IMG/VR virus record: IMGVR_UViG_3300027419_000027
Location: 16,039-80,038 of that record
Length of the DNA: 64,000 nucleotides
DNA from: a virus
Taxonomy: Duplodnaviria > Caudoviricetes
Reading direction: 5' to 3' (one strand)
The notes under the pieces are model-generated. The model did not search any database, was not told where the DNA came from, and saw only the letters and a program-made list of their open reading frames with translations. Below, in pieces: positions 4,377 through 35,608 of this stretch (within the stretch, counting starts at the first letter, position 1; the number at the start of each line of letters is the position of its first letter). The position numbers and the translations under genes were made by a program.

Positions 4377-4398
4377 TGAAAAAAAATAGGAGGCAGGC

Positions 4399-4575: not shown

Positions 4576-4943
4576 AAAAACACAGACTAAAGCTGAATGG
4601 CAAGTGGGTGACGCCATCGGAATTCCATCGAAGTGGGCCGGTCGGAGGCGTTGGCATTCCGGCCATCCCCGCAACCTGTTCCTCTGCGAAGCCGCGGGTG
4701 TCAGAGTCAATGGGTGTGCTTCCACATCAAGTCCCCGTGGAGCGGGCGAAGCTTAGGGAGTTGCAACACAAAGGCGAGTTGACCGGCGTAAATATTCGCA
4801 ACGATGGTGCAGTCGAGTACACCTGCAATGGTGAACAGGGTGCGATCGGCTGGCAAAGGTATCGCGGAAACAAAGTCAACTTGGACGGAGGGTATTCAGA
4901 CACATACACTCCAGATGATCGGTTTGGCGCGAAACAAGAGTGA
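4572..4943 (+). CDS. Hypothetical head-region protein
   Basis: TTG start overlapping the previous stop (TTGA). In the operon between portal and scaffold. Confidence 0.6.
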   Translation: MKKHRLKLNGKWVTPSEFHRSGPVGGVGIPAIPATCSSAKPRVSESMGVLPHQVPVERAKLRELQHKGELTGVNIRNDGAVEYTCNGEQGAIGWQRYRGNKVNLDGGYSDTYTPDDRFGAKQE

Positions 4944-4957
4944 CAGGAGAACGATTC

Positions 4958-5974: not shown

Positions 5975-5990
5975 ATAAAGGAGCGGCCCC

Positions 5991-7109
5991 ATGGCGCTTG
6001 GAATTGAACAGATTGATGATTTCGTTGCTGGGATTCACCAGAAGTTTGCTGGCGAAGAACGGCTGGCTGCGCAGGACATCTCCCTGCCATTGCAAGAGTA
6101 CAAGTACGCATCGCGTCTTTTCAGCGGAAACCTGAAAAAAGACACGATGAGTACGTCGCAGTGCAAGTGGAAGGTCAAGGTAAATACGAACGACAACTTC
6201 CAGGTTGTCGGTCTGTATCACCGGGATGCTTCGACTCGTGTGAACGTGTTGGACGAAGGCGAATTGAAGTGGGGCCTGACGACCAACAACTACCACTACG
6301 ACATCGACGAAGAAATCTTCCGCACCGGCGGCCGGCAGATTTACGACTACATCGAGTCGTTGGAAAACGACTTGCTCACGTCGTTCTACACCGGCATGGA
6401 AGACCTGATGTTCGGTCCTGGCCCGTCCAGCCCGACTCAGTCTCCTTTCCCGCCCGTTTCGCTGTTGTGGTGGATCACCGCGACCGACGACAGCACGACG
6501 GAGAACAACTCGGAAGAGGGCTTCGACGGGTACGAGCCTCTCGGCTGGGGATCCAATGGTGCGGGCGGGATTTCCTGCACGACTTATCCCCAGTGGCGAA
6601 ACCGGACGTTCCCGTACGCCAACGTGGATCGTGCCGATTTCGTCGAGAAGACCATCAATTCGATGGACCTCTGCCAGTTCATGCCTCCTGTTCAGCGTCC
6701 TGACATCGTTGACCAGAAGCGGCACGACTGGGAATTGCTGACCACCCATAGCGTCTTGGCCAAATCCCGCCAGTTGTTGCAGTTGGGCAACGACAACATC
6801 GGCGACGACATGGCGGCGCACAGCGGCACGGTCTACATCCGTGGCGTACCGCTGAACTGGGTTCCTGCCTGGACGAATTCTGCCAGCGTGAATGCTCGCA
6901 CGGACGGGATCATTCTGGGCGTGAACTGGGCGACGTTCAAGGCGTACTACGCCGAGGGGCGCAGGATGCGGAAGCGGAAGGCGTTCCAGCATCCCGACAT
7001 GTCGAATGTCCGTGTGCGTTGCATGGACGACTCTGTGCAGATCGTGTGCTTCAACCGTCGCGGGAACTTCCGCGGCTACAGCACTAGCACCGTGACGGAA
7101 ACCGCCTGA
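5991..7109 (+). CDS. Major capsid protein (HK97-fold likely)
   Basis: 372 aa, strong AAGGAG SD, follows the scaffold gene. Confidence 0.8.
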   Translation: MALGIEQIDDFVAGIHQKFAGEERLAAQDISLPLQEYKYASRLFSGNLKKDTMSTSQCKWKVKVNTNDNFQVVGLYHRDASTRVNVLDEGELKWGLTTNNYHYDIDEEIFRTGGRQIYDYIESLENDLLTSFYTGMEDLMFGPGPSSPTQSPFPPVSLLWWITATDDSTTENNSEEGFDGYEPLGWGSNGAGGISCTTYPQWRNRTFPYANVDRADFVEKTINSMDLCQFMPPVQRPDIVDQKRHDWELLTTHSVLAKSRQLLQLGNDNIGDDMAAHSGTVYIRGVPLNWVPAWTNSASVNARTDGIILGVNWATFKAYYAEGRRMRKRKAFQHPDMSNVRVRCMDDSVQIVCFNRRGNFRGYSTSTVTETA

Positions 7110-7120
7110 CATCCCGAGTC

Positions 7121-7150
7121 GTAGTTGCCCGTAGTTGCCCGTAGTTGCCC
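7121..7150 (+). repeat. Perfect 10-bp tandem repeat x3 (GTAGTTGCCC)
   Basis: Directly visible, intergenic after the capsid stop. Confidence 0.95.
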
Positions 7151-7187
7151 ATATTTACGAAACGCACAATCTCAAAGGAGATAGCAA

Positions 7188-8081
7188 ATGCTTACCATGT
7201 GGAGTGAACTCGATGGCGATAGGCTGTTTTCGCCAAAACTCTGGAAGGGCATGGCCCCGCCTTTGGGGTCTGGCATCTTTCAGACGCAGTCCGGAAATCC
7301 AGCCGTTGGCGTGTTTGACGATTTCGTCGGATTCGGCGGCACGTTGAGCACAAACACTGGTTCGTACTACAGCGGGGCGAATCGGTACATCAGCTACCAA
7401 ACGGCCAGCACGTTGCTGACCAACGTGGCCCTGACGCCGACGCCCGCGAGTGTCGCGCCGACCAGCATCGGAGCGATCATTTTCCAGCCGACCTCTGGCG
7501 TTACTGACAACGACCAGATTTCGCTTCAATGGGGTGGCCACGAACTGACACCTTATGGGTGTTTCCCGTTCTCGGTCATTCCTGGCATGAGCAAGGATCT
7601 GGTCTTTGAGTGCCGATTCAAGGTCAGCGCCATCACGGACAGTCTTGGCGACCTGTTCATCGGCTTGGCGGGCGCCGCTGGCGTGGCCCCGGCGGCTTCG
7701 GCCGTCCCGATCACGCAAACGGCCGACACGATGGCGACGACTGTAAGCCATCTCGGTTTCCACAAGCTCTCTGGGGACGGCGACAAGATCGACCTGTCCT
7801 ACGAGCGAGCCAGTGGAACGGTTGCCACCAAGGCGGATGTCGGAACTCTCGTTGCCGACACCTACATCAAGGCCGGTTACCGCTACGACTCGCTCACGAA
7901 GACCTGCACCCCGTGGGTCGACGGGGAGGCTGTTACGGGTTCGCGAGTCAGCGCATCGACGACTGGTGCGACACCGTGGCCGAACGACTTCATGGCGCCT
8001 GTGTTGGCTTCCATGCAAGTGGACGGCACCACGGGGTTGACGATGACGGTCGACTGGTGCGCCTGCGCTCAGTACATCTGA
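7188..8081 (+). CDS. Putative capsid decoration/minor virion protein (beta-rich)
   Basis: T/S/G/A-rich, follows MCP, strong SD. Confidence 0.55.
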   Translation: MLTMWSELDGDRLFSPKLWKGMAPPLGSGIFQTQSGNPAVGVFDDFVGFGGTLSTNTGSYYSGANRYISYQTASTLLTNVALTPTPASVAPTSIGAIIFQPTSGVTDNDQISLQWGGHELTPYGCFPFSVIPGMSKDLVFECRFKVSAITDSLGDLFIGLAGAAGVAPAASAVPITQTADTMATTVSHLGFHKLSGDGDKIDLSYERASGTVATKADVGTLVADTYIKAGYRYDSLTKTCTPWVDGEAVTGSRVSASTTGATPWPNDFMAPVLASMQVDGTTGLTMTVDWCACAQYI

Positions 8082-8094
8082 CCATTTCTGGATT

Positions 8095-8130
8095 GCTGGA
8101 GGCAGGCACCCCCTGCCTCCAGCGTCCTTT
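8095..8130 (+). terminator. Stem-loop, probable terminator or mRNA stabiliser after the capsid genes
   Basis: GCTGGAGGCAGG-CACCC-CCTGCCTCCAGC, a perfect 12-bp stem with a short T-run. Confidence 0.55.
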
Positions 8131-8145
8131 CTGGAGACTTGAGCA

Positions 8146-9108
8146 ATGGCTGATCCAGCCGCCCTGACGGTCAGTTACACAAGCCTACTCGAAAGAGTAG
8201 GCCGATTTCTATTCGGGCTAAGAACCGGCTATTCCACTGCGGAAACATCGGACATCAATGACTGCATTCGCGACGGACTTCGTCGGACCTACGCTGCGAA
8301 CGACTGGTCATTCTTCAAGCCGATCGAAGACGTTTCCACTACCGCACCCTACGCTACCGGAACAATCGAAGTAGTCGATGGCGTGGTGACTCTGACGAGC
8401 GGGACGTTTCCAACCTGGGCAGCAGACGGACTGCTGAGTGCGGATAACAGTTACTACTCTGTCGCCAGCCGAGGTGATGACACGCATATTACCCTGGACG
8501 ACACCAGCGTAGACATCGACGCTGGAACGACCTACGAACTTGGTCGGCCCGAGATTTCCATGCCAACAGCGTTCGAGGCGGTCGCTGGCGATAGCGAATT
8601 GACATACTATCCCGACCAAAACGAATTGTATCCGGCAGTCCAGCAGAGACACGATCAGCAAATCCGCAAGTGGCAGATGAACGATCCGTATTTCGATCGG
8701 CCACGCTACTACTCGGTGCGGACTGTCGAATTCGATCCAACCGTTGGAAGCCGAAAGGTTCTGGCATTCTATCCGACGCCCGACGCAATTTACGTTCTTC
8801 GTTGCCCGATGATTCTGCGGCCAGTGTTCATCGACGCAACCAATTTGTATCCGGTCGGAGGCGAGACTCTTTCTGCGCTCATTCAGGAAGCGTGTCTAGC
8901 GGCAGCAGAGCACAATCTTGATGACGGCGACGGCATTCACGAGAAACAGTTCCGCGAACTACTGCCGGCGGCAGTTATGGCAGACAGGGACCGCAGTTCT
9001 CCTACGACATTAGGCCCCGATGCTCCAGGAAGCGGGCAGCGAACTTCGGACTACTGGCTGCGAAGCGCGAGAATGGGGGCGGTTAGCCTCGATGGCACAG
9101 AGCTTTAG
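8146..9108 (+). CDS. Head-tail adaptor / tail tubular A-like protein with an inserted beta domain
   Basis: N-terminal 'SLLERVGRFL...DCIRDGLRR...DWSF' helix pair and 'LAFYPTPDAIY' motif, typical of adaptors. Confidence 0.6.
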   Translation: MADPAALTVSYTSLLERVGRFLFGLRTGYSTAETSDINDCIRDGLRRTYAANDWSFFKPIEDVSTTAPYATGTIEVVDGVVTLTSGTFPTWAADGLLSADNSYYSVASRGDDTHITLDDTSVDIDAGTTYELGRPEISMPTAFEAVAGDSELTYYPDQNELYPAVQQRHDQQIRKWQMNDPYFDRPRYYSVRTVEFDPTVGSRKVLAFYPTPDAIYVLRCPMILRPVFIDATNLYPVGGETLSALIQEACLAAAEHNLDDGDGIHEKQFRELLPAAVMADRDRSSPTTLGPDAPGSGQRTSDYWLRSARMGAVSLDGTEL

Positions 9109-9125
9109 GTGTAAAGGAGATCGTA

Positions 9126-9461
9126 ATGGCTTGGGATAAACTAGACGCCTTCGGCCTGTTTTCGCTGACGGGCGCTACCGAAATAACGCTGGAACTGCTT
9201 CCGATGTATTCGTACAAGTTAACGCATACAGGGAAGGATTCGGCCGGAAATGACGATGCGAGTTCCGCGATTTCGGCGTGGCTGTCGACGACTAGCGCGA
9301 CGATTACCGCCGACAACACCGTGGAAGACGACAAGATGTGGATTGCCGACGCCGGCAACGAAACCATCGGTCCAGGCATCAGCAAGTTGTACGTCGTGTC
9401 GACGGCCGGGGCCGACGCTGCAATTCAGATCGTTCGGCAAAATTCGCACGACATCTGGTAA
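9126..9461 (+). CDS. Hypothetical virion protein
   Basis: AAGGAG SD, structural operon context. Confidence 0.6.
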   Translation: MAWDKLDAFGLFSLTGATEITLELLPMYSYKLTHTGKDSAGNDDASSAISAWLSTTSATITADNTVEDDKMWIADAGNETIGPGISKLYVVSTAGADAAIQIVRQNSHDIW

Positions 9462-9485
9462 CAATTTTTCGCGAGGTCCGATACT

Positions 9486-9896
9486 GTGGCTATTCACGCA
9501 ATGCTGAACGATTTATCGCGGGCGTTTACCGAACCAGGGCCTGGCTACGTCAACGCCACGGCGACGGACGATGGATCCGGAACCGGGACACTCCGCGAGA
9601 ATCTGCTGGTCCAGTTCGTCGTTCCCAACTGGGACGGCGACGCCAACCACATCTTGGTTCTGCCGAGTCCGCTGCCTGGCAAGATCGTTATCATCGCCGG
9701 GGCGGCGACAGGTGGAGAATTGCGAACCACTTCGCCGACGACGGTCGGCATCAACGGTGGAACGGGAGCGGCCGCAGAGTCCGCCGTGGCGGCTAGCCAG
9801 ATGGTGGTTGCCATCTGCGAATCCACAACCAGTTGGAAGGCGTTCACCATCGCGTCCGATGGGACGACGGCTGGGCTGGAAGCGGCGGCAACGTAA
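9486..9896 (+). CDS. Virion decoration-like protein, paralog 1 of 3
   Basis: N-terminus HAMLNDLSRAF...PGPG is shared with the next two genes. Confidence 0.6.
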   Translation: MAIHAMLNDLSRAFTEPGPGYVNATATDDGSGTGTLRENLLVQFVVPNWDGDANHILVLPSPLPGKIVIIAGAATGGELRTTSPTTVGINGGTGAAAESAVAASQMVVAICESTTSWKAFTIASDGTTAGLEAAAT

Positions 9897-9958
9897 TGTG
9901 GTATGTAACCCAACCGGGTCTTGGGACTTCCCCGAACATAACTGAGAAGGAGTAGACA

Positions 9959-10366
9959 ATGGCTGGAGCACACAGAAGCCTGAACGATATGTTTCGCGCC
10001 TTCGGAACAGGTGGGCCTGGAAGGGTTCCAGATCCTGGCAGTGGTGGAACCATCCAATTTGAGTTGTGGGGCCAGGTCTGCTCCGTGAACACGACCGGGG
10101 GAGGGGCTCGCACGTTAGCACAGCCAAACAGGCCGGGGCTTCTCGCAACAGTGGAGCTTGATGTCGACGGTGGCGATATGACTCTCACCGTAACCGGCGG
10201 GTACAACCAGCCGGGCCATACCACGATCACGATGGACGATGCCGGCGACTTCGCGACGTTCATGTCTGTTGAAATCGGCGGCTCGTATTACTGGCGACAA
10301 GTCGGCAAGGAAAGAAAACTGGTCGTTACTTCCAGCACGCCATCCAGTTCGCCTTCGGCGTCGTAA
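9959..10366 (+). CDS. Virion decoration-like protein, paralog 2, short Ser-rich tail
   Basis: HRSLNDMFRAF...GPGR; ends TSSTPSSSPSAS. Confidence 0.65.
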   Translation: MAGAHRSLNDMFRAFGTGGPGRVPDPGSGGTIQFELWGQVCSVNTTGGGARTLAQPNRPGLLATVELDVDGGDMTLTVTGGYNQPGHTTITMDDAGDFATFMSVEIGGSYYWRQVGKERKLVVTSSTPSSSPSAS

Positions 10367-10422
10367 GAAGCACTTTATCCTTTCGGGCCAAGGGGCCTTT
10401 CACTTTTGCAAGGAGCAGATCA

Positions 10423-10983
10423 ATGTCTGCACACAGAACTCTGAAAGACATGTACCGAGCTTTCGAGGCAACGGGACCGGGCAGACTTGCCGATCCTGGA
10501 GATACCGAGACAATCACGGTAACCATGTATGGGCAAATCTGCTCCGTTGTGACGGCAACGACAGAAACCCGCACGTTGGCCCAGCCGGACAGGCCGGGAA
10601 TTATTGCTACCGTCTGCTTGGCTGAAGACGGTGGCGATCTGACTCTCACCGTTACCGGAGGGTACAACCAGGACGCCGACACGGTGATGACATTTGCCGA
10701 CGCTGGCGACTTCGTGACGTTCATCTCGATCGAGGTGGGCACCAGCTACTACTGGCGCGTGTTTGCTCCAGCAGAGGAATTGGTCATTCCGTCGGCTTCG
10801 GCGTCGAACACGCCGTCGTCTTCTGTGTCGAACACTCCGTCGACTTCTCCGTCGGCATCTGTATCGAACACGCCGTCTGCTTCGGTATCGAACACGGTGT
10901 CGCGTACTCCGTCTGCTTCGGTATCGAACACTCCGTCCGCGTCTATATCGAACACCCCGTCTACTTCGCCTTCGGCAACGTAA
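10423..10983 (+). CDS. Virion decoration-like protein, paralog 3, long Ser/Thr/Pro tail
   Basis: Clearly alignable with 9959-10366 (RTLAQP.RPG, LTVTGGYNQ). Tail of (S)VSNTPS repeats ending SPSAT. Confidence 0.7.
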   Translation: MSAHRTLKDMYRAFEATGPGRLADPGDTETITVTMYGQICSVVTATTETRTLAQPDRPGIIATVCLAEDGGDLTLTVTGGYNQDADTVMTFADAGDFVTFISIEVGTSYYWRVFAPAEELVIPSASASNTPSSSVSNTPSTSPSASVSNTPSASVSNTVSRTPSASVSNTPSASISNTPSTSPSAT

Positions 10984-10994
10984 GGACGTTTGCT

Positions 10995-11714
10995 ATGTCC
11001 GACCTGACAGTTCTCTACCTAACAGCGAATAGGATGCCCCAGCGTTGGGTCGACTTCCATCTGGAACATCTGTTGGCGGCAGTTGGCGACTATCCGCTAA
11101 TTACTGTCTCGTCGAAGCGAATGGACCTTGGAGTAGGAGAAACCAACATCATTCAGGATATCCCCTACGGAGGCTGGAGCACGTTCTGCATGTGGAATCG
11201 TGCGGCGAAGTTGGCCGACACGCCATTCGTAGCGATAGCCGAGGATGATTCTCTGTATCCAAGGGAACACTTTGCGACATTCCGTCCGAAAATGGACGAA
11301 GTCGCGTACAACATGGCCCGCTGGACGGTGATGAGTTGGCATGACCGTCCTAGCTTCTCGCTTATCAGGCGCCTGGGCGGATTCACGATGATCTGTCCGC
11401 GAAAACTATTGATCGAAGCGTTGGAAGAACGGGAAGCCAAGTATCCAGACGGACATTACCGACCTGGAGAAATCGGCAGACCGGACAGCGATAGGCGAAT
11501 GCGGGTCACTCCCCGCAAACATGTGGAGTGGTGGTCGAAAACGCCTGTCATAAACCTAGCCCATACTGTGGGCGTTTCTCCGACGTACATAGGCGTTCGA
11601 GGACATCGACGCAAGGAAGGCGAATTGAAGGCGTTTGACGTACCGTACTGGGGGAAAGCCGCGGACATAGCGGCAGTATTCAACAGCGGATTGGCGGAAG
11701 AAGCGAATGTCTGA
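10995..11714 (+). CDS. GT-A fold glycosyltransferase-like protein
   Basis: N-terminal beta strand LTVLYLT; FVAIAEDDSLY DxD-type motif. Confidence 0.6.
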   Translation: MSDLTVLYLTANRMPQRWVDFHLEHLLAAVGDYPLITVSSKRMDLGVGETNIIQDIPYGGWSTFCMWNRAAKLADTPFVAIAEDDSLYPREHFATFRPKMDEVAYNMARWTVMSWHDRPSFSLIRRLGGFTMICPRKLLIEALEEREAKYPDGHYRPGEIGRPDSDRRMRVTPRKHVEWWSKTPVINLAHTVGVSPTYIGVRGHRRKEGELKAFDVPYWGKAADIAAVFNSGLAEEANV

Positions 11715-12324
11715 TTTTCTCGCAATCCTAGAGCAGCATTGCCACTACTACGGACAAACCGACAGCCTTCCATTTGGGGTGAGGCCACGGCGCCGGAATC
11801 AGCACGGACGTACCATTCTGGCGCGTATCTTACGGGACATGGGATTTCGGGAAGGTGTGGAGGTAGGCACTGAGCGTGGGACGTCCGCCATGCTCTGGTG
11901 CGAAACGAATCCACTTCTGCACTTGACATGCGTTGATCCGTACGGGGTCTATCGCGCAAGGCAGTCGCAGGAAAAACAGGACGCTGTCTATGCTCTCGCC
12001 CAGGAAAACCTGAAGCCGTTCAACGCAACGATTCTTCGGGAACCAAGTTTGGAAGCAGTCACGCATTTCGCAGACGGATCGTTGGATTTCGTCCACATTG
12101 ACGGAAATCACGAGTTCGATGCGTGCATGATGGACATCATCCATTGGGTGCCGAAAGTGCGGGAGGGCGGCCTAATTCTGATCCATGACTATTGCAACTT
12201 CTATCGAGGAGGTGTGGTTCAGGCCGTGGATGCGTATGTGAGTGGACACGCCATCCGGTCATGGTTCGTGACGCACGATGCGCCGGCAACTGCTTTCTGG
12301 CAGAAAGGCGTGGAGTTGATATGA
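11707..12324 (+). CDS. Class I SAM-dependent methyltransferase (Methyltransf_24-like)
   Basis: GVEVGTERG, CVDPY, LDFVHIDGNH, GGLILIHDY. Confidence 0.85.
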   Translation: MSDFLAILEQHCHYYGQTDSLPFGVRPRRRNQHGRTILARILRDMGFREGVEVGTERGTSAMLWCETNPLLHLTCVDPYGVYRARQSQEKQDAVYALAQENLKPFNATILREPSLEAVTHFADGSLDFVHIDGNHEFDACMMDIIHWVPKVREGGLILIHDYCNFYRGGVVQAVDAYVSGHAIRSWFVTHDAPATAFWQKGVELI

Positions 12325-13139
12325 ACGTCTCCATTTGCATGGCGAGCTTCAACAGAGACCCGAAGGTTCTCGATGCGGTGCTCAATAGCATTTGTTCGCA
12401 GACATGCCACTTTCCGGTCGAAGTGGTCGTTGCAGACGACGGAAGCGAGTTTGGGGCACCGGACGTGTGCGGGAACTATCCGGTGGAGTATCGAAGGATC
12501 GACAGGGAACCGGCCGTGCGAAACCCGAGCGTGGCACGCAACATTGCCTATCGCCAGGCTTCCGGCGACATCATTATCGCGCAGTCTGACGATGTGGTCC
12601 ATGAAGACGGAGCCGTCGCTGAGCTGGTCGAACTGTTGGAGAACAATTCCTCTTCATTCGTTATCGCCACAGTCCTTGGGTGCGATAGAAACGGTATTCC
12701 GGAAGAGGTGTATACGGGCGAATGGAACGGCCAGTTGAGACATCTTCCGCTGTTTTTCCTTGGTGCGCTATGGAAAAGCGACCTCTACGCCATCGGAGGA
12801 AACGATGAGGAGTTTGCCGTTTGCGGAGGAAATGGAGGGCAGGAAGACAAGTGGTTTGCCAGGTGTTTGATCGATGGACGTGGATTGTCTCCGGTTTACG
12901 CGGAGAACGTAGTTGGCTACCACATGGCGCATGACAGGCCGTCGGAGCGATCTGCCAAGCACACCAACATGAAACTGTATCACCAAAAACTAGAACGAGC
13001 GATGAACACTGGTGTGTGGTGTTCCTCGAGCGGGCCTTGGAGGGAATACGATGGGGCGACTTCGGTTGGCGCCGTTTCGCGGCAGTCACTTGCCTTTGCT
13101 GATGCAGGCCGTGGCGAAAACCACCGGTCCGATCCTTGA
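12321..13139 (+). CDS. GT2 glycosyltransferase
   Basis: VSICMASFNR, VVVADDGS, IIIAQSDD, IGGNDEEF...GQEDKW. Start reassigned to the ATG overlapping the previous stop. Confidence 0.85.
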   Translation: MNVSICMASFNRDPKVLDAVLNSICSQTCHFPVEVVVADDGSEFGAPDVCGNYPVEYRRIDREPAVRNPSVARNIAYRQASGDIIIAQSDDVVHEDGAVAELVELLENNSSSFVIATVLGCDRNGIPEEVYTGEWNGQLRHLPLFFLGALWKSDLYAIGGNDEEFAVCGGNGGQEDKWFARCLIDGRGLSPVYAENVVGYHMAHDRPSERSAKHTNMKLYHQKLERAMNTGVWCSSSGPWREYDGATSVGAVSRQSLAFADAGRGENHRSDP

Positions 13140-25072: not shown

Positions 25073-26471
25073 ATTCAAATACCAGCCGGCGGGTGCGATT
25101 GTTGGATTGGCTGCGTATGCGGCTGGGCAAAGCAAGGCGAGGGAGCGGGCCTTGTCTGGGGCCTTGTCTGGACGGCGATACCCTCGCACTTCACAGGCAG
25201 ACACGGAAGAAATCGGCGGCCGGTGGGTCGATCCGCTGGACCAATTCGAGGGTCCGGACGAGGCGTTGCAGCAGGCGAGGATTCAGCAGCGGGCCCAGAT
25301 GAAGGCTGTTGGCAGAGATCCTGGTCGGGCACAGCGATACGGTTCGAACAATCTGCTTCCTAGGTGGCAATCCGGCGCCCAGGTCAAACAGATACAGGAA
25401 GCTCAGAAGGAGGCGACCGAACAAGCGACCAAACAAGCGGGCGAAGTCCGGACGGATACTCGCGCGTGGCGCCGGGCGCAACTGTCGTCGATGTTCAGCG
25501 ACTTGCCAAAGATTCCAGAGCATACGGAAGGGGATGACCGACGCCGTCTGGAAGGTCTGCTGAGAGACATCAACAAGGCGCGATACTCCCGAGATCTCGA
25601 TCCGACAGACGACGACAAATTCGATCAAGTTGCTGCGTTGGTTAAGGAATATAATGAAGCGGTAGGTGCAGTTCCGCCGGCCAATCCGAATCAATACGGG
25701 TATGTGCTCAACCCAGAAACGAAGAAGCTGGAACCTGCTGGCGAGCAAATGGCGGAATATGAATGGAAACCTGGAATGACATCACCTGTGGAGACAGAGT
25801 GGTTCAGGAATAAGAGGGCGGAAGATGCGGCAAAGGCGGAACTGGACAGGACAAGGGCAGACGCGGCAGAAAAGGAACGAAAGGCCGCTGATGCGGCGGC
25901 ATTCAAAGAACGGAAGGATGTCATAAAAGGATACTATGACAAGTTAGTCCCAACCATAGGATCAAAGTCGACTGGTATAGGGCCTAAGCCACCGGCAACC
26001 ACTGCGGAAGCGATGGCTACGGCGACCCTACAGGCCGAAGAATATTTCAAGGCCACGTCGGCGGCTCCTGGCACACCGCCTGGTACGCCAGGAGCCGCTC
26101 CTGGTGGAAGCCCCGCGGCCCCTTCCGGCCCGGTACAAATGGGCCCAGATGGCATAGCAAGCCCGGCGCCCGAACCAATTACCCTTCAGCCAGCCCCGCC
26201 ATCGAACACGTACCCACAAGACGACGCACGGAGACCAGCGGAACCGACGTCGAATCCCGCAAGCCCAGCCACAGCGGTGCCTGCTGGGTCAAATGGCCAA
26301 CCTGTAGATCGGATTGTGCCGACGACGGCGGCGCCACCGCAAATAGCGACAGATCCGGGAAGGCGGTCAGGTAATTCATCGGCAGTCGATCGCGCCATCG
26401 CCGCGGCGCGTGCAGGCGACCAAGCCGCAAGGCGCTCTCTTGAAAGCAGGGGAATTCCATGGCAACAGTAG
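25062..26471 (+). CDS. Internal virion (ejection) protein, Q/A/P-rich
   Basis: Low-complexity helical and Pro-rich. Precedes the giant gene. Confidence 0.6.
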   Translation: MPIKFKYQPAGAIVGLAAYAAGQSKARERALSGALSGRRYPRTSQADTEEIGGRWVDPLDQFEGPDEALQQARIQQRAQMKAVGRDPGRAQRYGSNNLLPRWQSGAQVKQIQEAQKEATEQATKQAGEVRTDTRAWRRAQLSSMFSDLPKIPEHTEGDDRRRLEGLLRDINKARYSRDLDPTDDDKFDQVAALVKEYNEAVGAVPPANPNQYGYVLNPETKKLEPAGEQMAEYEWKPGMTSPVETEWFRNKRAEDAAKAELDRTRADAAEKERKAADAAAFKERKDVIKGYYDKLVPTIGSKSTGIGPKPPATTAEAMATATLQAEEYFKATSAAPGTPPGTPGAAPGGSPAAPSGPVQMGPDGIASPAPEPITLQPAPPSNTYPQDDARRPAEPTSNPASPATAVPAGSNGQPVDRIVPTTAAPPQIATDPGRRSGNSSAVDRAIAAARAGDQAARRSLESRGIPWQQ

Positions 26472-29400
26472 ACTGGGAATCGGAACTGACTGCCGAAGTT
26501 GGTCCACCTCTACAAGGCGGCCAATCGACAGCGATTGACTGGGAAGCGGAATTGGCCGCTGAACTCGGACCACCGCCCGTTCTCCGGGCTGAACCACAAC
26601 CGCAACAGCAACCCACTCCGCAGCAACCGGCTCCCGAACAGCCAGTGGCCAAAGTCGAGCAGGCATCGCTTGGTTCGTCCGCCATGTCGCCCCGAGAAGA
26701 ACCCCAGAAGCCGCCGCAAGTATTCGACTTTGAGGGAACCACTTACTCGGCACCGTCCGACTGGTCGCCTGAAACGATTTCCAGGTGGCTCAACAAATAC
26801 GCGATACCCGACACTCGCCGCAATCTGACCCGAGAACGTGCCGGAGGTCGATCCCAGTATTTCGATTCCGAACGCGAACAGAAACTCCGGACGTCAACGC
26901 CGGTTGGTCAGCAGGGGCTGAAGGAGTGGGCTGAGTACCTGTCGGGCGAGGACGCCGAGGGCAAGCCCATCGTCGTGAAGCCTGAAGATGTGACCCCACA
27001 GGCTATGGCCGAGGTCGTCAAGGCGTACAAGCAGCAAGCGGAAGAATCGGCCAAGGCGACAGACATTAACCCGGTGAAGATGCGAGAGCTTAACGAAGAC
27101 ATCGCGTCCCTGGAGCGGGATCTGGAGCGACGATGGCCAAACGAGACGACAGCCGAGAGCGTCAAGAGGCAAATCGTCGACAAGATGACCGACAAGGAGG
27201 TACTCGAAGGAGCGAAGAAGCGCGGCGCGAAGGAAAGAATCACGGCCGATGCCGCACGGCAGATGATCGTCGAGGAACGAGTCAAGGGCCGGACTCCGCA
27301 GCAGGTAGCTGCCGATGAGGCGATTCTGAATTCCAGGCCGGGATACGTCGCCAGGAAGAACCAGCCGAAGGAAGCGTTCTGGGCAGAGAACCTTTTGCGA
27401 GAATACCAGCAGAAATACGGAGACGAGATCCCTCGCGACAAGAAGCCTGCGTTCGACAACGCCAACAAAGCCTACGATGCGTGGCTGAAGAGCAGCCCCA
27501 ATGGCGCCGAGGAAGGATTCGACGACTGGAGACGGAGTGCAAAAAGTCGTTCGATACTGCACCCCGAGGAACAAAAGCAACTGGAGGAACAGAAGCGAGA
27601 TCCGCAAAATCGGCAACGCTACAACAACCTGTCGGAAGCGATGGTGGCTTACCACGCCTACAACACGGGCGACTTGGATGTCGTGCCCTATCTCTTGAAG
27701 CGGATCCCGTTTGCAGGAACGGCGGTCGAGGCTGCCGATCTTCTGTCGCTCCGCAATGCCGTCAAGAACATCGAAGCCAAAAAGGCGACCGATTCGGATT
27801 GGTTCACTCTTGCGGGGGCGATCGACGCTGCGGAAAAGAGCAAGGACAGAGGATTTGGCAGGAAAGTCTTCGATCTGGTATCGCAGCTTCCCGCGATGGG
27901 TGTTGAATTCACCATGACCGGCGGTGGATTCACGGCAGCGCGCGCCGGGGCCAGGAAGCTCGCCGCGCAAGTGCTTGGAAAGCAGCTTCTGCGTCGTGCG
28001 GTTCCCAGGATGGCCGTCAAGGCAGCCGGATTCGCGGCTGGCGTGGCTGGCCGAACAGCTCTCAATGCACCGCTGGTAGCGGCCAAGGTATCTGAGAAGT
28101 GGATGCCGGAATACGATCTGACGCGAGACGAGACTGGTCAGCTTACGGCTGCCATCACGGGTGACGATCCGTCCTTCCTGGAGGCCCTGGGAAAGGGATT
28201 TGGGGCAGCCTACATAGAGATGGGATCCGAGGAAGCCGGGCGCCTCATCGGGATCGGCGGCAAGGCCTTAGCACAAAGCGCGGTCGGTCAGGCGTTGGCA
28301 AAGATTCCGCTGGCCCAGCGTACCATGGCCTTGAAAGCCGCCGTGCTCAACCGTTTCCTTGCAAAGGGCGGCACTGCCGCAAAAGCCAGGGAGATCCTCG
28401 ACAAGGCCGGATGGAATGGCATGATCGGCGAGGTGTTCGAGGAACGTGTGGCGGACGTTGCTGGCGGTGTGACTGGTATCGAAAAGGACTATGGCACCAC
28501 AGGAAAATTGCTCGCCAATGATCCAGAGGGGTGGGAACAGTTGGGCGTCGAGGCGCTGTCGTTCTCGGCGATTCCCATTGGGCAGACCGTCTTGTCGGCC
28601 GCAGATGCTGCAATGGCGCCGAAGGATACCAGGGGGCCTGTCGCTACACGAGAACCGGTCAGTACGCCCAGGGCACAGACTGAATTGGAAAAGCTGCGTC
28701 AGATCGTGGCGAAAGGGTGGGTAACGGTTGAGGAGGCGAATGATGCCGGTCTGTCCGGTCAGAACCGAGGCTCGCGAAAGGCGGCAGTACAAGCACGCAT
28801 CCAACAACTCGAACAGGAGATTTCCGATGCCGAGAAAGTACCTAGCGATCAAGTCGTCCCTGAAGAAGCAGGGCAAGTCGGAGAACGAGTCCCAGCGGAT
28901 AGCCTCGGCGACATTCGTGGGCCAGGGCAAGAGCAAGTCGGAGCGCAGCCGGCGGGCGAAGTCGCTGAAACACAAGTAGAGCCCGAAACTCCGGACATCG
29001 CTGAATTGAAGCGAATGGATCCCAAGGAGATCGAACAGATGTGGCTGGCTACCTTCCCTGGCGGGGAGTTCATGCCAACCGACGTGGACGAACAGATTCA
29101 GCAGATCGCGAAGGCGTGGGGAGGCGAGAAACAGAAGACTACCCCGTCTGCTGCCGATTTGAACACCTTTGCCGATGAACTCGAACAGGAGAAACAAGAT
29201 GCCGAACTGGTGGCTGATCAACCTGGTGCGGTGGCTCCGGATGTGGGACCGCCCGCAGGACCAGTGGCCGATGGAACGGACAGTGCACTACCGATCGCAC
29301 CCGCCCCGAGCGTTTCGGAACCGGCGGATGTTGCAGCCCAACCCGAGGGACGGGAGGGAGTAGGGCAGGCAGGGAAGCATGAATTCTCGTCCACGCAAGT

Positions 29401-32400
29401 TAATCTTCCCAAAGCTATCGCAGACGAGATTGTGTCTGCCAGCCAACTGATCGACGAAGCTGATCTTGCGGAAGACGGCCGCGAAACAGAACCCCACATT
29501 ACGGTCAAGTACGGACTTCACACCGAAGACGTTGAAGCGGTTCGTAAACTCGTCCAGAATGAGCCCCCGATTACAGTCAAGCTCGGGAAGATATCCACGT
29601 TCGAGAATGACGATTACGATGTGGTCAAAGTGGATGTTGAAAGCGACGACTTACGCCGGATCAACAAGAAGATTGCCGACAACCTGGAAGTCACCGACAC
29701 GCAGCCCTCGTACAAACCACACGTCACTCTGGCGTATGTTAAGAAGGGAGAGGGCAAGAAATATGCTTCCGCCAAGGAACTCGGGCATGAAATCACTCTG
29801 GACGCACTGACGTTTTCCAGCAAGACAGGCGAGCGAGTCGACATTCCGCTTCTGGGAACGACACCATCCATCGCGGAGCCCCCACAAGCCCCACAAACGC
29901 CCATTCCGGCCGAGACGCCTCAAGACACCACCCCGCCCGCGGAAACGCAGCAGGAAGCGACCCAGGCGGTTTCCGTGGACTATTCCGGCATGACCGGCAA
30001 GGAATTGACAGCAGAGGCCAAGAAACGGGGGCTGAAGGGTTTCGGCGGGAAGAAAGTGGCTGCGATTCGGACGATGCTGGAAGAGGATGACCGGGCGGCA
30101 GTCAAGAAGCAAACCACCAGCGAGCCCGCAGAAGTGACCGGGGAAGTAGCCACAGAAACAAAACAGCCGTGGCAGGTGTCCAGCGAAGCGTACTCGTCCG
30201 CCACCATGCCGGAAAGGCGAATATCCGACGAACTCGGCAGGACTCTTCAGGAACTCGACGTCAAGAAGCGTTCATGGAGAAAGCCTGAAGAGTCCAATCA
30301 GATATACCCGACGTTGAGTGATCTTGGCATCGACAAGAAGGCGTTTCGTTCGCTCGTCAAGGAAGGGTACGCGGAAGATCGAGGCTTTGGGCCATCAACG
30401 ACACCAAAGGCTTGGTTTGAACTGCAAGTTCTTGCTGGCGAGAATCCGATCGTTGGCGTTAGCATTAAGAGCCATGAGCAGATTGTCGAAGAAGCACTTG
30501 CCGCCGGCAAGGAAGTTCCCGCCGAAGTCCTCGCCGAATATCCCGACCTGAAGCCCGTGGCAGAAACTACCAGCACTCCCGCAGAGCTCCCGAGCGAGCC
30601 TGTAGGGCCGTCCGTTGGCGTTCCCGAGGGGCTGGACCCTATATTCTACCGCAGGGGGTTGGAGGCCCGCTCAGCCGGTATCCGCAACCCGGAAGCGTCT
30701 GGAGTGAGACCCGGTACGATCCCTTGGAAATCGTGGATGGCAGGGAACGAGGCAGGCGAGAAGCCCCCCAAGAGGAAAAGCCGCGTCAAATCGGAGGAGC
30801 CCCCGAGCGAGCCAGAGGTTGTGACGGAAAAAACAGGTTTCGACGCTGCCATTCCAGAAGCAACCGAGGCGCTGAAGTCTGCAGACATGTCCACCCGCGA
30901 TGGCGAGCTCGCGGCCATGCGTGAGGTCAAGGCTATTGCCGAGAAACATGGCGTGGGGGCCAACGAGCTTTGGCGTGACGTAGCGTGGGATGCGGTTGGC
31001 GGAATGGACATCGAGACGGAAACAGGAACCGAGCGGAAGGGCGAGCGAACCAAACCATCAACGCCGAGTGGTCCTGGCCCTGGCAAAATGGAAGCCGAAT
31101 CAGATATTCGTGAAGCCTACGAAAGCGGAAACATTGACGTAAGCGAAGCGAGGCGGATGCTCGCAGAGCTTCGGGCAAAACCTTCCGAGCCCGAAACGAA
31201 GCCCGCGAAGGGGTTCAGGAAGTCAAAGACTCCGAAGGCCGCCCGCGGGGCCGCTTCCTCCCTGTCCCAAGCCTCCAAAGCAGCGGACAAGGAAGTTTCC
31301 GAAGCGCTCGACAAGTTTGGAAAGACTCTCCGCAGCAAGGGAGCAGGATCCAACCTGTTCCTTGATGCCGAGATTCTCGCTGCTGCCGCGAACCTGACCG
31401 TTAAGTTGGTCAAGGCCGGGGTGCTTCGGTTCGCTGTGGCGATGGAACGTATGACCGCCCGTTTCGGCGAAGCGGCCGAGCAGTACCGGCCTGCCATGGA
31501 ACGAGCATGGGACGACACCCGGGCCGCCAATCCGGACTGGGGCATGGAAGCTCGCGAACCGGAAACCGCCGAGCCAGAAGAACCCACCTCGCCGCCTGCC
31601 CCGCCCGCGGCCGTCCCTTCGCAACCTCCGCAGCCAGCAGCGAAGAAACCGCCACCGTCTGGATTCATCGGAATCAAGAGAGCACGGCTAGAAATGCAGG
31701 CCGATGCCGCTGGATTGCCTCGTCCAACAGAAGTCGAATCCGTAAACGCCATTGAGCTTGTGGCGAATGCAGTAGCCAATTTGACGCCCAAATCTGATCA
31801 GGACATTCAAGCACTTGCAGCAGAAGTCATCACTTCCCAAAAATCAATTACGGTTGAACAGACAGCCGAATTGTTGGCTAGCGTAGATTACCACAGCCGA
31901 AAAGCGGACGAGGCAGACGACTTATACAACAAGCATATGGCTGCCGGTGAACTGGAGAAAGCAAGAATAGCGGAAGAGGAATCAGCCCTCCACAAAACCA
32001 CCGTGCGCAATCTGTCACAGGCGGCGAGAGATGTCGGACGGCGGCAGTTCGCATACATGGGGCATGTTCTGCAAATCCTAGTTGACAAGGATGGACAAGC
32101 CCACATTGAACGACTTCTGCGAAAAGCCAATGACGGACGGCTGGACGAAAGCGATATTGCCTGGGCCGAGAAGATGGCAAAACAACTGGAGAAGGCAAAG
32201 AAGGATCAAGCGAAACGCGGCAGGGAGCTTGACGAAGAAGAAGCACTGACTCAAGCAAAACAGAAGATCGCCGAACTGGAAGCGGAAATCAAACGGGAGC
32301 GGATGCGACCACGCACACGTGGTTCCAAAAACAAGATCGTTACCCAAGAGGCAAAGGACGCGGCGGTACAGCGAATCTTGGCTCGGCTGAAGAACGTGGG

Positions 32401-35400
32401 AACCACATCTTCTTCAACTCCAGCCGGGATAATAGTAGAAATGCTGGCGGATGCCGCGATTGTTGCCGGCTACCATGTCGAGGCTGGAGCACGGAAACTC
32501 GCAGACTTCTCCAAGGCAATGATTGCGGATCTTGGTGCTTGGGTCGAGCCGCACTTGGACGATCTGTATCGCAAAGCCAGAGCGGAGTATGCCAGCATCC
32601 GCCTAGCGGAACTTGGAGAGAAACTTGCAGAAACCGACGATCTGCGTGGACAGCATAGCTACGTTGAGAAAATGGCGAAGGAGATCCTGGCGGAAACTCG
32701 CAGGGAGGACGGCACATTCATTCATCGGGAAGAATTGCTGGACAGACTGCATGAAAAGATGAAAGCATTTGATCCAGACATCACTCGGCGCGAGACAATG
32801 GATATGTTTTCTGGGTATGGCAAACATCGCGAGTTGTCGCAGGAAGACCTGGAGGTGGCGTACCGAGATCGTCGGGGAGAGTCCAGAGAACTTGGTAAGA
32901 TCGACGACATGCGGCAAAAGATAGCACCCAGTTCCACTGGCACGGAGAGGCACACGCCATCTGACGAGGAACGGCAACTGCATAGAGATGTGAGAGAGTT
33001 GAAGAGACAAGGAGAGGCGGAAGGGTGGTATTACTCAGGGGATAAAGAGAGGAAACTCAAAGGCACACTTGAATCGCAGAAGACACGCCTACACAATGAG
33101 ATTCGCGATCTCGACAACCAAATTGCATCCGGCAAGAAGACGGTAAAGGACAAGACAGCGCCTCTCACCGATGCAGAACTGGAATATTTGCGTGAACAGC
33201 GAGATCAAAAGAGGGAACGGCTGGATGCCGTCATACGTGCTTCCGAAGAAGCCGACTTCGCGAGATGGGAAAGCGAAGGAGGAACTTTTGTCGATCCCGC
33301 AGTCGAGGAATACCTGAAGGTGTTGGATCGACAGATTAGATCGCTACAAAAACAGTTGGCGACGAAAAGTGTGTTTTCAAAACCTTCGCCGTGGCGACCT
33401 GGCGGACAGGCAGTAGATGTCAAGAGGGCACAGATCGAAGCATTGCAGGCCGAAAAGGCTTTGATGCGGAAAATCTTGGACCCCAATTACGAAACGAATC
33501 AAAAACTCTTGAATGCCGAGAAGGCGGCAGAACGAGAACTTGCAAAACTGGAAAAGGAACAGGCCGAAGGTTTCAAGATGCGAGAGAAACCACAGCCCAT
33601 AGTCTCTGATAAGCTCAAGGAAACGCGCGCTAAGTTGTCCGCGATACGTCAACAGAGAAGGGACTCGCTAGAAGGCGAGTATGCCCTGCGAGCCGCTATT
33701 GCCCAAAGCACACGCAATTCCGCGAAGATTTCCGAACGCCTAGCAAGCGGTGACTTTTCGCCAAGGAAGCGAAAGCCCAAAAGAACATGGGACGATCCAG
33801 AATTCAAGAAGGCAAAAGCCAATGAATTGGAGGCACGAAAGCAACTGGCCGAAAAAATAGCCGAATACGAGTGGGAACACATGACTGGCTGGGGAAGAAC
33901 CAAGTTCTATGCCGGGCGAGTCAGAGACGTATGGAAGGCGGTCATGACAGGATTCGACCAGACGGCACTTGGATTGCAGGGTGGCATCGTCACGTTTACT
34001 AATCCGGCGGTATGGTCGAAGGCGTTAGTTCCTACCGCCAAAGCGCTGATGAGTGAAGAAAACCGCGAGCTGTTGGATGCAGAGAGAGAGTCGCATCCGA
34101 ATTACGAGCGATTCAAAAACTATGGACTTGCTGTGCGAGAACACGGTGTCAGTAAAGACATGGCAGCTACGGAATTCTACGGCTCAGATGCGTTGATAGA
34201 CCGCATCTTTGGCGTAGCTATGAGCGAGCGTTCATTCTCCACGTTCATCAATGAGCTGAGATTCAACTTGATGCAGGTGCTGGAATGGTCGTACACCAAG
34301 GATGGGCGACAACTCACGCCAACTCAAGGCGAAGCTCTGGCCAGGATCGTAAATGCATTCACTCTCGCGTACAAACCAAAAAGCCACAAATTGCAGATAG
34401 CATTAGGTGTTGCGGGTGAGTTTTTTTGGGCTCCATCCATGTACGTTGCACGTCTGCAATTAGCGGTGGGGGCGCCTGTATTGTTTAATCCTGGGGCCGA
34501 TTCACGGGTACGCATGATAGCTGCGAAACAGTATCTCAAGGCGGCGGTAGGCATTGCAGTCACAACCGCCGTCCTGCGAATGCTGTTGGACGGTGACGAT
34601 GATGATGAACTGAATATGACAGACCCCGATTACTACAAGGTGAAACATGGAAATATCCGGATGGATCTGACATCGGGGCTAGGCCAGATGATGGTACTTG
34701 GTGCCAGAATCCTTAACTCTATCGTCGATGCCAGACTTGGCGAACCTCTGTGGGAAACCAAGGGCCGCCCGACGAGCACTAGAGAACTATTCGGATCTTT
34801 TGCCAGTTTCAAGACAGCTCCATGGGTGTCCGCAATCTTCGACTTCACCGAGGAAAAGGATGTAGTCGGTCGTCCGACATCGTTGGGAAACATATTACTG
34901 TCAAACATCACTCCCCTATCAGTTCAAACGCTTGTTGAGTCAGTTGAAGAGGCGGGAATGATCGAGGGGTTGGCATGGACGCTTCCTGGCGTTACGGGGC
35001 GCAACCTGTCGATATACGACCAAACCGCACCGAAGTCCGAAGAGACATTTCTAGCCACCACGCTGCGACTAGGCAGACGAATGATCGGCGCAGAGGCTCC
35101 TGGGCTTAAACCGGCCGAAATGGACAAGTGGCTTGAATCTAAGATCGAGTGGGACGCTGACCTGTCTGCGGTCGATAGATTTCTGACTCCTGAACAAGTT
35201 AAACAGGCAAAGTCTCGCCTCGAAAACAGGAAACAGGCTGTTGTGTTTAATGGTCTGAATCCGGAACCCAAGCGAACCCCAAAAGACACGGACGAGACCT
35301 ACCAGAAGAAACTGGACGCGCACTCGAATGCCCAGAATCGGCTTCGGGAAATGACCCAGACCCTCGGGCTGAGTCACGCCGAGGCTCAGCGGCTTCTGGT

Positions 35401-35608
35401 GGAGTCCTACCGCAAACCGAACGCAGAAGGCGTCATGCAGACGGAAGTGAATGCCAGGAACACCAGGGCCTTCGACAAGAGTTATCCGGAAAAGGGGATT
35501 GCCCTGGCGAAACTCTACGGGTTATCGGAAGAGGACTTCTGGAAATTCCGAGATAGCGCCGAATTCCAGGCGTGGGATACACGGTGGCAGGCGGAACAGG
35601 GCTGGTAA
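26459..35608 (+). CDS. Giant (3049 aa) polyvalent internal virion protein
   Basis: Uninterrupted ORF. Contains a 2H phosphoesterase (PHITV...PHVTL), a Rho-N/SAP-like motif, an 'HEQIVEEALAAGKEVPAEVLAEYPDL' polyvalent-protein-type motif, and a helical C-terminal ejection-protein-like region. Confidence 0.85.
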   Translation: MATVDWESELTAEVGPPLQGGQSTAIDWEAELAAELGPPPVLRAEPQPQQQPTPQQPAPEQPVAKVEQASLGSSAMSPREEPQKPPQVFDFEGTTYSAPSDWSPETISRWLNKYAIPDTRRNLTRERAGGRSQYFDSEREQKLRTSTPVGQQGLKEWAEYLSGEDAEGKPIVVKPEDVTPQAMAEVVKAYKQQAEESAKATDINPVKMRELNEDIASLERDLERRWPNETTAESVKRQIVDKMTDKEVLEGAKKRGAKERITADAARQMIVEERVKGRTPQQVAADEAILNSRPGYVARKNQPKEAFWAENLLREYQQKYGDEIPRDKKPAFDNANKAYDAWLKSSPNGAEEGFDDWRRSAKSRSILHPEEQKQLEEQKRDPQNRQRYNNLSEAMVAYHAYNTGDLDVVPYLLKRIPFAGTAVEAADLLSLRNAVKNIEAKKATDSDWFTLAGAIDAAEKSKDRGFGRKVFDLVSQLPAMGVEFTMTGGGFTAARAGARKLAAQVLGKQLLRRAVPRMAVKAAGFAAGVAGRTALNAPLVAAKVSEKWMPEYDLTRDETGQLTAAITGDDPSFLEALGKGFGAAYIEMGSEEAGRLIGIGGKALAQSAVGQALAKIPLAQRTMALKAAVLNRFLAKGGTAAKAREILDKAGWNGMIGEVFEERVADVAGGVTGIEKDYGTTGKLLANDPEGWEQLGVEALSFSAIPIGQTVLSAADAAMAPKDTRGPVATREPVSTPRAQTELEKLRQIVAKGWVTVEEANDAGLSGQNRGSRKAAVQARIQQLEQEISDAEKVPSDQVVPEEAGQVGERVPADSLGDIRGPGQEQVGAQPAGEVAETQVEPETPDIAELKRMDPKEIEQMWLATFPGGEFMPTDVDEQIQQIAKAWGGEKQKTTPSAADLNTFADELEQEKQDAELVADQPGAVAPDVGPPAGPVADGTDSALPIAPAPSVSEPADVAAQPEGREGVGQAGKHEFSSTQVNLPKAIADEIVSASQLIDEADLAEDGRETEPHITVKYGLHTEDVEAVRKLVQNEPPITVKLGKISTFENDDYDVVKVDVESDDLRRINKKIADNLEVTDTQPSYKPHVTLAYVKKGEGKKYASAKELGHEITLDALTFSSKTGERVDIPLLGTTPSIAEPPQAPQTPIPAETPQDTTPPAETQQEATQAVSVDYSGMTGKELTAEAKKRGLKGFGGKKVAAIRTMLEEDDRAAVKKQTTSEPAEVTGEVATETKQPWQVSSEAYSSATMPERRISDELGRTLQELDVKKRSWRKPEESNQIYPTLSDLGIDKKAFRSLVKEGYAEDRGFGPSTTPKAWFELQVLAGENPIVGVSIKSHEQIVEEALAAGKEVPAEVLAEYPDLKPVAETTSTPAELPSEPVGPSVGVPEGLDPIFYRRGLEARSAGIRNPEASGVRPGTIPWKSWMAGNEAGEKPPKRKSRVKSEEPPSEPEVVTEKTGFDAAIPEATEALKSADMSTRDGELAAMREVKAIAEKHGVGANELWRDVAWDAVGGMDIETETGTERKGERTKPSTPSGPGPGKMEAESDIREAYESGNIDVSEARRMLAELRAKPSEPETKPAKGFRKSKTPKAARGAASSLSQASKAADKEVSEALDKFGKTLRSKGAGSNLFLDAEILAAAANLTVKLVKAGVLRFAVAMERMTARFGEAAEQYRPAMERAWDDTRAANPDWGMEAREPETAEPEEPTSPPAPPAAVPSQPPQPAAKKPPPSGFIGIKRARLEMQADAAGLPRPTEVESVNAIELVANAVANLTPKSDQDIQALAAEVITSQKSITVEQTAELLASVDYHSRKADEADDLYNKHMAAGELEKARIAEEESALHKTTVRNLSQAARDVGRRQFAYMGHVLQILVDKDGQAHIERLLRKANDGRLDESDIAWAEKMAKQLEKAKKDQAKRGRELDEEEALTQAKQKIAELEAEIKRERMRPRTRGSKNKIVTQEAKDAAVQRILARLKNVGTTSSSTPAGIIVEMLADAAIVAGYHVEAGARKLADFSKAMIADLGAWVEPHLDDLYRKARAEYASIRLAELGEKLAETDDLRGQHSYVEKMAKEILAETRREDGTFIHREELLDRLHEKMKAFDPDITRRETMDMFSGYGKHRELSQEDLEVAYRDRRGESRELGKIDDMRQKIAPSSTGTERHTPSDEERQLHRDVRELKRQGEAEGWYYSGDKERKLKGTLESQKTRLHNEIRDLDNQIASGKKTVKDKTAPLTDAELEYLREQRDQKRERLDAVIRASEEADFARWESEGGTFVDPAVEEYLKVLDRQIRSLQKQLATKSVFSKPSPWRPGGQAVDVKRAQIEALQAEKALMRKILDPNYETNQKLLNAEKAAERELAKLEKEQAEGFKMREKPQPIVSDKLKETRAKLSAIRQQRRDSLEGEYALRAAIAQSTRNSAKISERLASGDFSPRKRKPKRTWDDPEFKKAKANELEARKQLAEKIAEYEWEHMTGWGRTKFYAGRVRDVWKAVMTGFDQTALGLQGGIVTFTNPAVWSKALVPTAKALMSEENRELLDAERESHPNYERFKNYGLAVREHGVSKDMAATEFYGSDALIDRIFGVAMSERSFSTFINELRFNLMQVLEWSYTKDGRQLTPTQGEALARIVNAFTLAYKPKSHKLQIALGVAGEFFWAPSMYVARLQLAVGAPVLFNPGADSRVRMIAAKQYLKAAVGIAVTTAVLRMLLDGDDDDELNMTDPDYYKVKHGNIRMDLTSGLGQMMVLGARILNSIVDARLGEPLWETKGRPTSTRELFGSFASFKTAPWVSAIFDFTEEKDVVGRPTSLGNILLSNITPLSVQTLVESVEEAGMIEGLAWTLPGVTGRNLSIYDQTAPKSEETFLATTLRLGRRMIGAEAPGLKPAEMDKWLESKIEWDADLSAVDRFLTPEQVKQAKSRLENRKQAVVFNGLNPEPKRTPKDTDETYQKKLDAHSNAQNRLREMTQTLGLSHAEAQRLLVESYRKPNAEGVMQTEVNARNTRAFDKSYPEKGIALAKLYGLSEEDFWKFRDSAEFQAWDTRWQAEQGW
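28827..28979 (+). CDS. Nested +1-frame 50-aa basic protein inside the giant gene
   Basis: AGGAG-N7-ATG. MPRKYLAIKSSLKKQGKSENESQRIASATFVGQGKSKSERSRRAKSLKHK*. Confidence 0.55.
   Translation: MPRKYLAIKSSLKKQGKSENESQRIASATFVGQGKSKSERSRRAKSLKHK
29199..29363 (+). CDS. Second nested +1-frame 54-aa Trp/Arg-rich protein inside the giant gene
   Basis: AGGAG-N7-ATG in the same upstream context. MPNWWLINLVRWLRMWDRPQ...GRE*. Confidence 0.45.
   Translation: MPNWWLINLVRWLRMWDRPQDQWPMERTVHYRSHPPRAFRNRRMLQPNPRDGRE

Follow-up and report, generated by a model that had tools for sequence, protein, structure and literature searches.

In phage lambda, the small gene Rz1 has its own start and lies wholly inside the larger gene Rz in the +1 frame, and depending on the phage the two genes of the Rz/Rz1 spanin pair are embedded or are separate neighbours (PMC5295617, PMC6139136). 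This is the closest known architecture for the gene described here, which is located in a 64,000-nucleotide stretch (positions 16,039 to 80,038; hereafter the window) of the IMG/VR virus record IMGVR_UViG_3300027419_000027 (Caudoviricetes), an 80,038-bp groundwater metagenome record that is complete by CheckV. In the window, a small open reading frame (ORF) at 28827..28979 (+) is nested in a giant ORF at 26459..35608 (+; 3049 codons), which is multidomain, DarB-like and polyvalent-protein-like. We consider, with a probability of about 0.8, that 28827..28979 is a genuine protein-coding gene inside a disordered linker of the giant, that it belongs to an older family with its own initiation, and that its product has an accessory role with the giant protein. 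As in Rz/Rz1, the small gene is embedded in the +1 frame and is either nested or standalone across phages. However, a 9-kb DarB-like gene serves as host here in place of a lysis gene, the product of the nested gene is predicted to be a soluble basic three-helix protein and not a lipoprotein, the interaction of the two products is putative, and one slot is used by two families without detectable homology.

Two other kinds of system are comparable. Overprinted viral overlapping genes (PMC8227390, PMC7017920) resemble this locus in that DNA is read in two frames and one product is disordered and of biased composition. The ages are reversed here, since the nested ORF is old and widespread whereas the linker reading is younger and disordered. 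The Dar system of phage P1 consists of the giant DarB and small internal head proteins such as Hdf, DdrA and Ulx (PMC12810830, PMC9024508); in P1, DarB and small Dar proteins are packaged and ejected together (PMC12810830). Polyvalent proteins are also thought to be packaged and injected with DNA (PMC5512222). In P1 and at this locus a giant DarB-like protein is tied genetically to small accessories, but the genes are separate in P1, whereas they are nested here and known from genes alone. The nested protein showed no sequence similarity to any of the Dar proteins.

The nested ORF and its protein family

The nested ORF runs on the plus strand from an ATG at 28827-28829 to a TAG at 28977-28979 and comprises 50 codons plus the stop. 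A Shine-Dalgarno (SD) sequence, AGGAG, at 28815..28819 (+) precedes the ATG by a 7-nucleotide spacer (ATTTCCG, 28820-28826). Since (28827-26459) mod 3 is 1, the nested ORF is in the +1 frame of the giant ORF. In the host frame the same DNA (28826..28978, +) is translated as an acidic linker rich in E, Q, G and P (DAEKVPSDQVVPEEAGQ...), and the giant-frame text around the nested gene is EQEISDAEKVPSDQ... This linker follows a conserved N-terminal domain of the giant (28076..28826, +), which ends just before the nested start. An earlier sequence-only reading had described the AGGAG-N7-ATG start and the 50-amino-acid +1 ORF in the linker of the giant gene; we confirmed the coordinates, the translation and the host-frame text. 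The product, P0001, has 50 residues, including 15 K/R and 3 E, and a net charge of about +12. The small gene is single-copy in the 80,038-bp record.

When 1.84 billion representative proteins were searched exhaustively with P0001 by phmmer, four proteins of 52-65 amino acids were detected, which were aligned from Met1 to the end (residues 1-48/50) with E-values of 6e-7 to 6e-4. A profile built from these matches found 114 clusters of proteins of 41-75 amino acids, all annotated as 'hypothetical' and none with a Pfam domain (family 1). In the family alignment A2 (73 sequences), M1, P2 and Y5 are invariant and A26 and A27 are nearly so; P0001 carries all of these residues, and its length is within the family range. 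The A2 profile scored the window's nested ORF at E 3.5e-22, with the window sequence itself in the profile. The motif 'MP.KY..I...L..QG.S..EA..IA.AT', which the sequence-only reading had put forward, is the consensus of A2, and the standalone homologues for which it had suggested a search were detected.

The relation of this family to described models is partial. Twenty-nine of the 73 members of A2 matched phrog_32268 (function unknown; best E 5e-6), and nine weakly matched Pfam DUF7218 (PF23855; best E 0.0047). P0001 itself reached neither model, at E-value limits of 0.01 for PHROGs and 0.1 for Pfam; its scans returned noise only (phrog_25825, E 0.3; Carla_C4, E 0.048). In the ESM Atlas, the nested protein obtained a recognition score of 3327 with matches at 0.91, and a DUF7218 cluster was listed at 0.85, which we regard as a lead only. 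Searches of the cultured phage genomes in INPHARED by tblastn with P0001, P0059 and P0029 and by blastn with the region gave no match, and such short queries are weak in a collection of this size. A metagenome scan with P0001 found no relative.

The AlphaFold2 model of the nested protein, made with alignment A2, consists of three helices with a mean pLDDT (predicted local distance difference test) of 94.3. Foldseek found no match to this fold in PDB or BFVD at E <= 0.001. The earlier view that the product is not a random shadow is supported by homology and fold. The helix-turn-helix that it suggested differs from the model, which has three helices and is not of the classical helix-turn-helix type.

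It is hardly credible that the ORF is a chance shadow, or that a nucleic-acid element is conserved here instead of a protein. K/R-rich +1 frames do arise from E/Q-rich frames, which was a caveat of the sequence-only reading, and high-GC DNA contains many long alternative-frame ORFs. A chance ORF, however, would not be expected to combine significant homology to an independently called gene family, a confident predicted fold and the codon-periodic substitution in the nested frame given below; homology and the substitution pattern answer the caveat. RNA folding around the nested start was unexceptional (z = -1.1), which argues against a nucleic-acid element. The idea that the standalone members are themselves mis-called ORFs is countered by their stop-filled alternative frames; most standalone family-1 copies have 1-8 stops in the host-equivalent frame.

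Standalone copies were found in several gene contexts. In L004 the copy is flanked by the portal and Bbp19-like genes on one side and by the capsid genes on the other. In L012 and L007 a large gene lies two genes downstream of the copy (at least 1580 amino acids in L012 and 669 in L007). In L020-L024 it follows a gene for a 1256-amino-acid protein by 20 nucleotides; the C-terminus of this protein in L020 matches the C-terminal domain of the giants P0005 and P0004 (E 1.5e-8), and no direct match to it was found for the window giant, P0003. The small family is thus genetically tied to giant genes, nested in them or adjacent to them.

Nested copies and selection on the two reading frames

The DNA of the relatives was scanned in all six frames with the hidden Markov model of the family. 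The linker after the N-terminal domain harbours an intact nested +1 ORF, always at one site, in the window, L002, L015 and L018, and probably in L006. The conservation of SD, ATG and stop, which the sequence-only reading had proposed to check in homologous giant genes, was therefore observed, as these elements are intact in L002, L015, L018 and probably L006. The site has decayed elsewhere. L001 retains the last 11 codons (RSRRAKSLKHK-stop) without a start, L010 has MPKQYEALKKK-stop, which ends after 11 codons, and L009 is a probable relic in which the start context is kept and P2 and Y5 are lost. No recognisable remnant was found at the linker of L011. The loss of the nested gene in several related giant genes indicates that it is dispensable in some lineages.

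It is very unlikely that the small domain is made by frameshifting. In this explanation, ribosomes on the giant gene would shift by +1 shortly ahead of 28827 and terminate at 28979, yielding a fragment of about 840 amino acids that ends in the small domain, and AGGAG would act as a stimulator, as in prfB. An internal SD-like sequence within a translated ORF fits this explanation, and no stop interrupts the +1 frame of the window over the 33 codons that precede the nested ATG. In contrast, the +1 frame ahead of the ATG is closed by a stop at a distance of 12 codons in L002 and of 5 codons in L008, no slippery motif is common to the nested copies, and all separately called family members start at the same Met-Pro.

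Two giant genes appear broken. In L018 (1-960) the host ORF of the nested gene ends at 768, and another ORF begins at 784. As these two ORFs match successive stretches of P0008 and P0010, the giant of this phage is divided into two or more genes. In L001 the giant gene seems to be split or frameshifted near its 5' end, at about 2993-3260, where ORF 1764..3182 overlaps ORF 2993..12796. The latter seems to be read out of frame over its first ~90 residues, and the cause may be either an error in sequencing or a genuine break.

The window and L002 differ at 28 of the 153 nucleotides of the nested gene (18% of sites). These differences fall 8/6/14 on the three codon positions of the nested frame, which are 14/8/6 in the host frame. 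In upstream 51-codon windows, the corresponding host-frame counts range from about 7/1/19 to 12/7/37 (Fisher p = 3e-6 versus the nested region), and substitutions in the N-terminal domain are mostly at host-frame position 3. Host-frame synonymous change amounts to 6 per 51 codons over the nested gene versus 15-37 elsewhere. This shift of the position counts means that 'synonymous' change in the host frame collapses and the periodicity moves to the nested frame. The suppression of synonymous variation that had been proposed as a check was thus found for this pair.

The protein products changed accordingly. Between the window and L002, identity is 76% in the nested frame, with conservative changes, and 65% in the host frame. 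When the same substitutions were placed randomly, this nested-frame identity was reached in 0.08% of trials (P = 8e-4) and the BLOSUM score in 0.005% (P = 5e-5). The short-type copies L015, L018 and L017 also have an excess of changes at position 3.

Codon usage shows selection on the host frame as well. None of the 50 nested third positions in the window is T, versus 6.7 expected under the codon usage of the giant gene (P = 4e-4). In family 1 as a whole, T occupies 3 of 185 third positions in nested copies versus 61 of 286 (about 21%) in standalone copies (p = 2.6e-11). Its near-absence at the nested third position keeps the giant frame open and free of stops. As judged from these substitution and codon patterns, both overlapping frames are kept by selection.

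The same data bear on the possibility that the ORF is a silent relic, that is, a small gene that was captured or engulfed by the giant ORF, is unexpressed, and is too recent to have decayed. The decayed copies in L001, L010 and L009 show that loss is tolerated. However, the ORF, SD, ATG and stop have stayed intact over 18% site divergence between the window and L002, the changes cluster at the nested third position and are conservative at the amino-acid level (P = 5e-5 as above), and an intact copy exists in three, probably four, more lineages. A silent relic is therefore unlikely, and a functional nested gene is preferred.

A second +1 ORF lies in the same giant gene, at 29199-29363 (+; 54 amino acids, MPNWWLINLVRWLR...), with an SD context at 29179-29205. 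Its upstream context, CTCGAACAGGAGA..GATGCCGA, nearly repeats that of the nested gene at 28807-28833, and L002 and L001 share the ATG and stop of this second ORF. Its substitutions have no codon-position bias in any frame, its Atlas score is low (1479, best match 0.79), and the giant frame over it (ELVADQPGAVAP...GREGV) is itself conserved. This ORF is probably a shadow ORF, and the repeated junction before it may mark a past recombination or a duplication of the linker.

A second family at the same site, and the origin and proposed role of the small genes

In the giant gene of L008, a different ORF of 41 amino acids (MPKELHDKL...YVYGTLNK) occupies the same site, in the +1 frame and with the same type of SD. 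It belongs to a second family (family 2; MPKELH..YVYGT) of basic proteins of 37-67 amino acids, with 35 clusters and more than 460 IMG/VR loci. No homology between the two families was detectable by hhalign (probability 0.8%). Four giant ORFs, of 1796 to 2845 amino acids, carry a nested family-2 ORF in the +1 frame, at 5213-5338 in L008, at 4187-4300 in L027 (the site used in the window), at 5001-5141 in L035 and at 5001-5132 in L088. With both families taken together, a small ORF lies wholly inside a larger one, on the same strand and in the +1 frame, in the window, L002, L015, L018, L008, L027, L035 and L088. In the set of nested copies from both families that was compared at the start, every copy has (A)AGGAG 6-7 nucleotides before the ATG; outside this set, L035 and L088 have purine-rich motifs other than AGGAG before the nested ATG. 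In L027 the start context is as in the window, and the junction is nearly identical to that of the window (GAACAGGAGATTCGAGATGCCGAAG). The host-equivalent frame is open in 4 of 4 nested family-2 genes versus 0 of 23 distinct standalone genes, and T at position 3 falls from 21% in standalone to 2% in nested copies.

The direction of the overlap can be read from the standalone genes. When the standalone copy in L017 is translated in the host-equivalent frame, it yields DAEAVRGPEEEV, words that recur in the giant linker of L010. This repetition indicates that the linker is an out-of-frame reading of the small gene and not the reverse. The host-frame linker is restricted to this clade of giant genes. 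In addition, landfill and groundwater contigs from the metagenomes of other studies (runs X3-X5) match only 28761-28979, which covers the last ~65 nucleotides of the N-terminal domain and the nested gene, and diverge right after the nested stop, forming a sharp block boundary. One of these contigs has a variant start context, AAGGAGTTACAAGATGCCACAGC.

Two other origins were considered and rejected. A gene overprinted de novo should be younger or narrower in distribution than its host frame. The nested frame is neither, as its family comprises 114 clusters, several of them standalone in unrelated contexts, and it is the linker that is clade-restricted. A simple fusion of an upstream gene, the small gene and a downstream gene is unsupported, because the flanks of the standalone copies do not match those of the giant in the expected order; the sole link is a weak 29% match of the N-terminus of the L012 giant to P0003 residues 576-666. 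The overlap likely arose when an existing gene was engulfed or inserted and its synonymous positions were then recoded.

Comparison shows the history of the gene, for which we propose a mode of expression and a function. The small gene is a member of an older, widespread and normally standalone family of basic phage proteins of 41-75 amino acids. In this phage clade the giant ORF reads through the small gene, so that the acidic linker represents the small gene read out of frame, and the nested copies have lost nearly all third-position T, leaving the giant frame stop-free. Ribosomes would initiate independently at the strong AGGAG-N7-ATG on the giant mRNA. The sigma-70-like site closest to the nested start is weak (9/12) and lies about 400 nucleotides upstream, at 28398-28425, and no terminator was found across 28000-29600. 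Such an internal start would decouple the level of the small protein from that of the low-copy giant protein. The three-helix basic protein would most likely work with the DarB-like giant as an internal-head or ejected accessory that binds packaged DNA or aids loading of the giant, in parallel with the small Dar proteins that accompany DarB in P1. For nucleic-acid binding, the sole indication is the net charge of the protein.

A more far-reaching scheme is put forward tentatively, at a little under even odds. In a clade of uncultured phages, the site after the N-terminal domain of DarB-like giants may be a conserved slot that takes interchangeable small basic genes, as represented by the two families with their MPK start, common SD-ATG junction and +1 frame. 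The giant would have engulfed a pre-existing gene that then underwent synonymous recoding, and the small protein would be an obligate packaging adaptor or a DNA-binding internal partner whose stoichiometry is set by internal initiation.

Several points weigh against a functional nested gene with an accessory role. The gene is lost or truncated in the giant genes of L001, L010, probably L009, and L011, and no second copy of the small gene was found in the L001 contig, which is 71% complete. The selection tests are based on few sequence pairs. Translation from 28827 is predicted from the conserved SD-ATG, in a phage known only from a groundwater metagenome, and the function of the small protein is deduced solely from its charge and gene neighbourhood.

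The nested gene has implications for annotation. Standard gene callers forbid fully nested genes on the same strand, so such a gene is usually absent from annotation, and the only nested copies to be called came from short contigs on which the callers had split the giant ORF (L018, probably L006). Conserved, foldable proteins can hide in this way in the linkers of giant phage genes. The locus has an old gene inside a younger frame, with a clear recoding signature, which runs counter to the usual account of de novo overprinting; it also provides a natural example of two proteins from one DNA that is useful to overlapping-gene design. Two uncharacterised small families are now linked to DarB-like or polyvalent injected proteins, which hints at a partner in packaging, ejection or DNA protection.

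Domains of the giant gene and its neighbourhood

The N-terminal domain of the giant (alignment A3) has 63-83% identity to the window across seven giant genes, with a mean column identity of 68%. Downstream of the linker, residues 983-1113 (29405..29797, +) form a 2H phosphoesterase domain of LigT/Acb1-like type (PF13563, E 4e-12; PF23474 (Acb1), E 3e-4; phrog_755). Residues 1787-2250 (window 31817-33208) match phrog_10089, 'DarB-like antirestriction', at E 2.8e-13, and a conserved C-terminal domain lies at 33830..35605 (+; alignment A5). The relatives of the giant are 2082-3859 amino acids long. They keep the N- and C-terminal domains and swap internal modules, such as PF01624 (MutS_I) in P0005, PF18857 in P0011 and extra segments in P0004.

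The match to phrog_10089 independently supports a putative injected anti-restriction or polyvalent role of the giant. It had been called a virion gene in the sequence-only reading, and this status is suggested by the DarB-like PHROG match together with the embedded 2H domain. By analogy with polyvalent proteins (PMC5512222) and P1 DarB (PMC12810830), the giant protein would be packaged in the capsid and ejected.

Elsewhere in the window, a plus-strand block in which nine other large ORFs had no Pfam match and ten large ORFs had no PHROG match contains a gene for a B12-binding radical SAM (S-adenosylmethionine) enzyme, at 14309-15553 (+; PF04055, E 2e-20; PF02310, E 2e-10).

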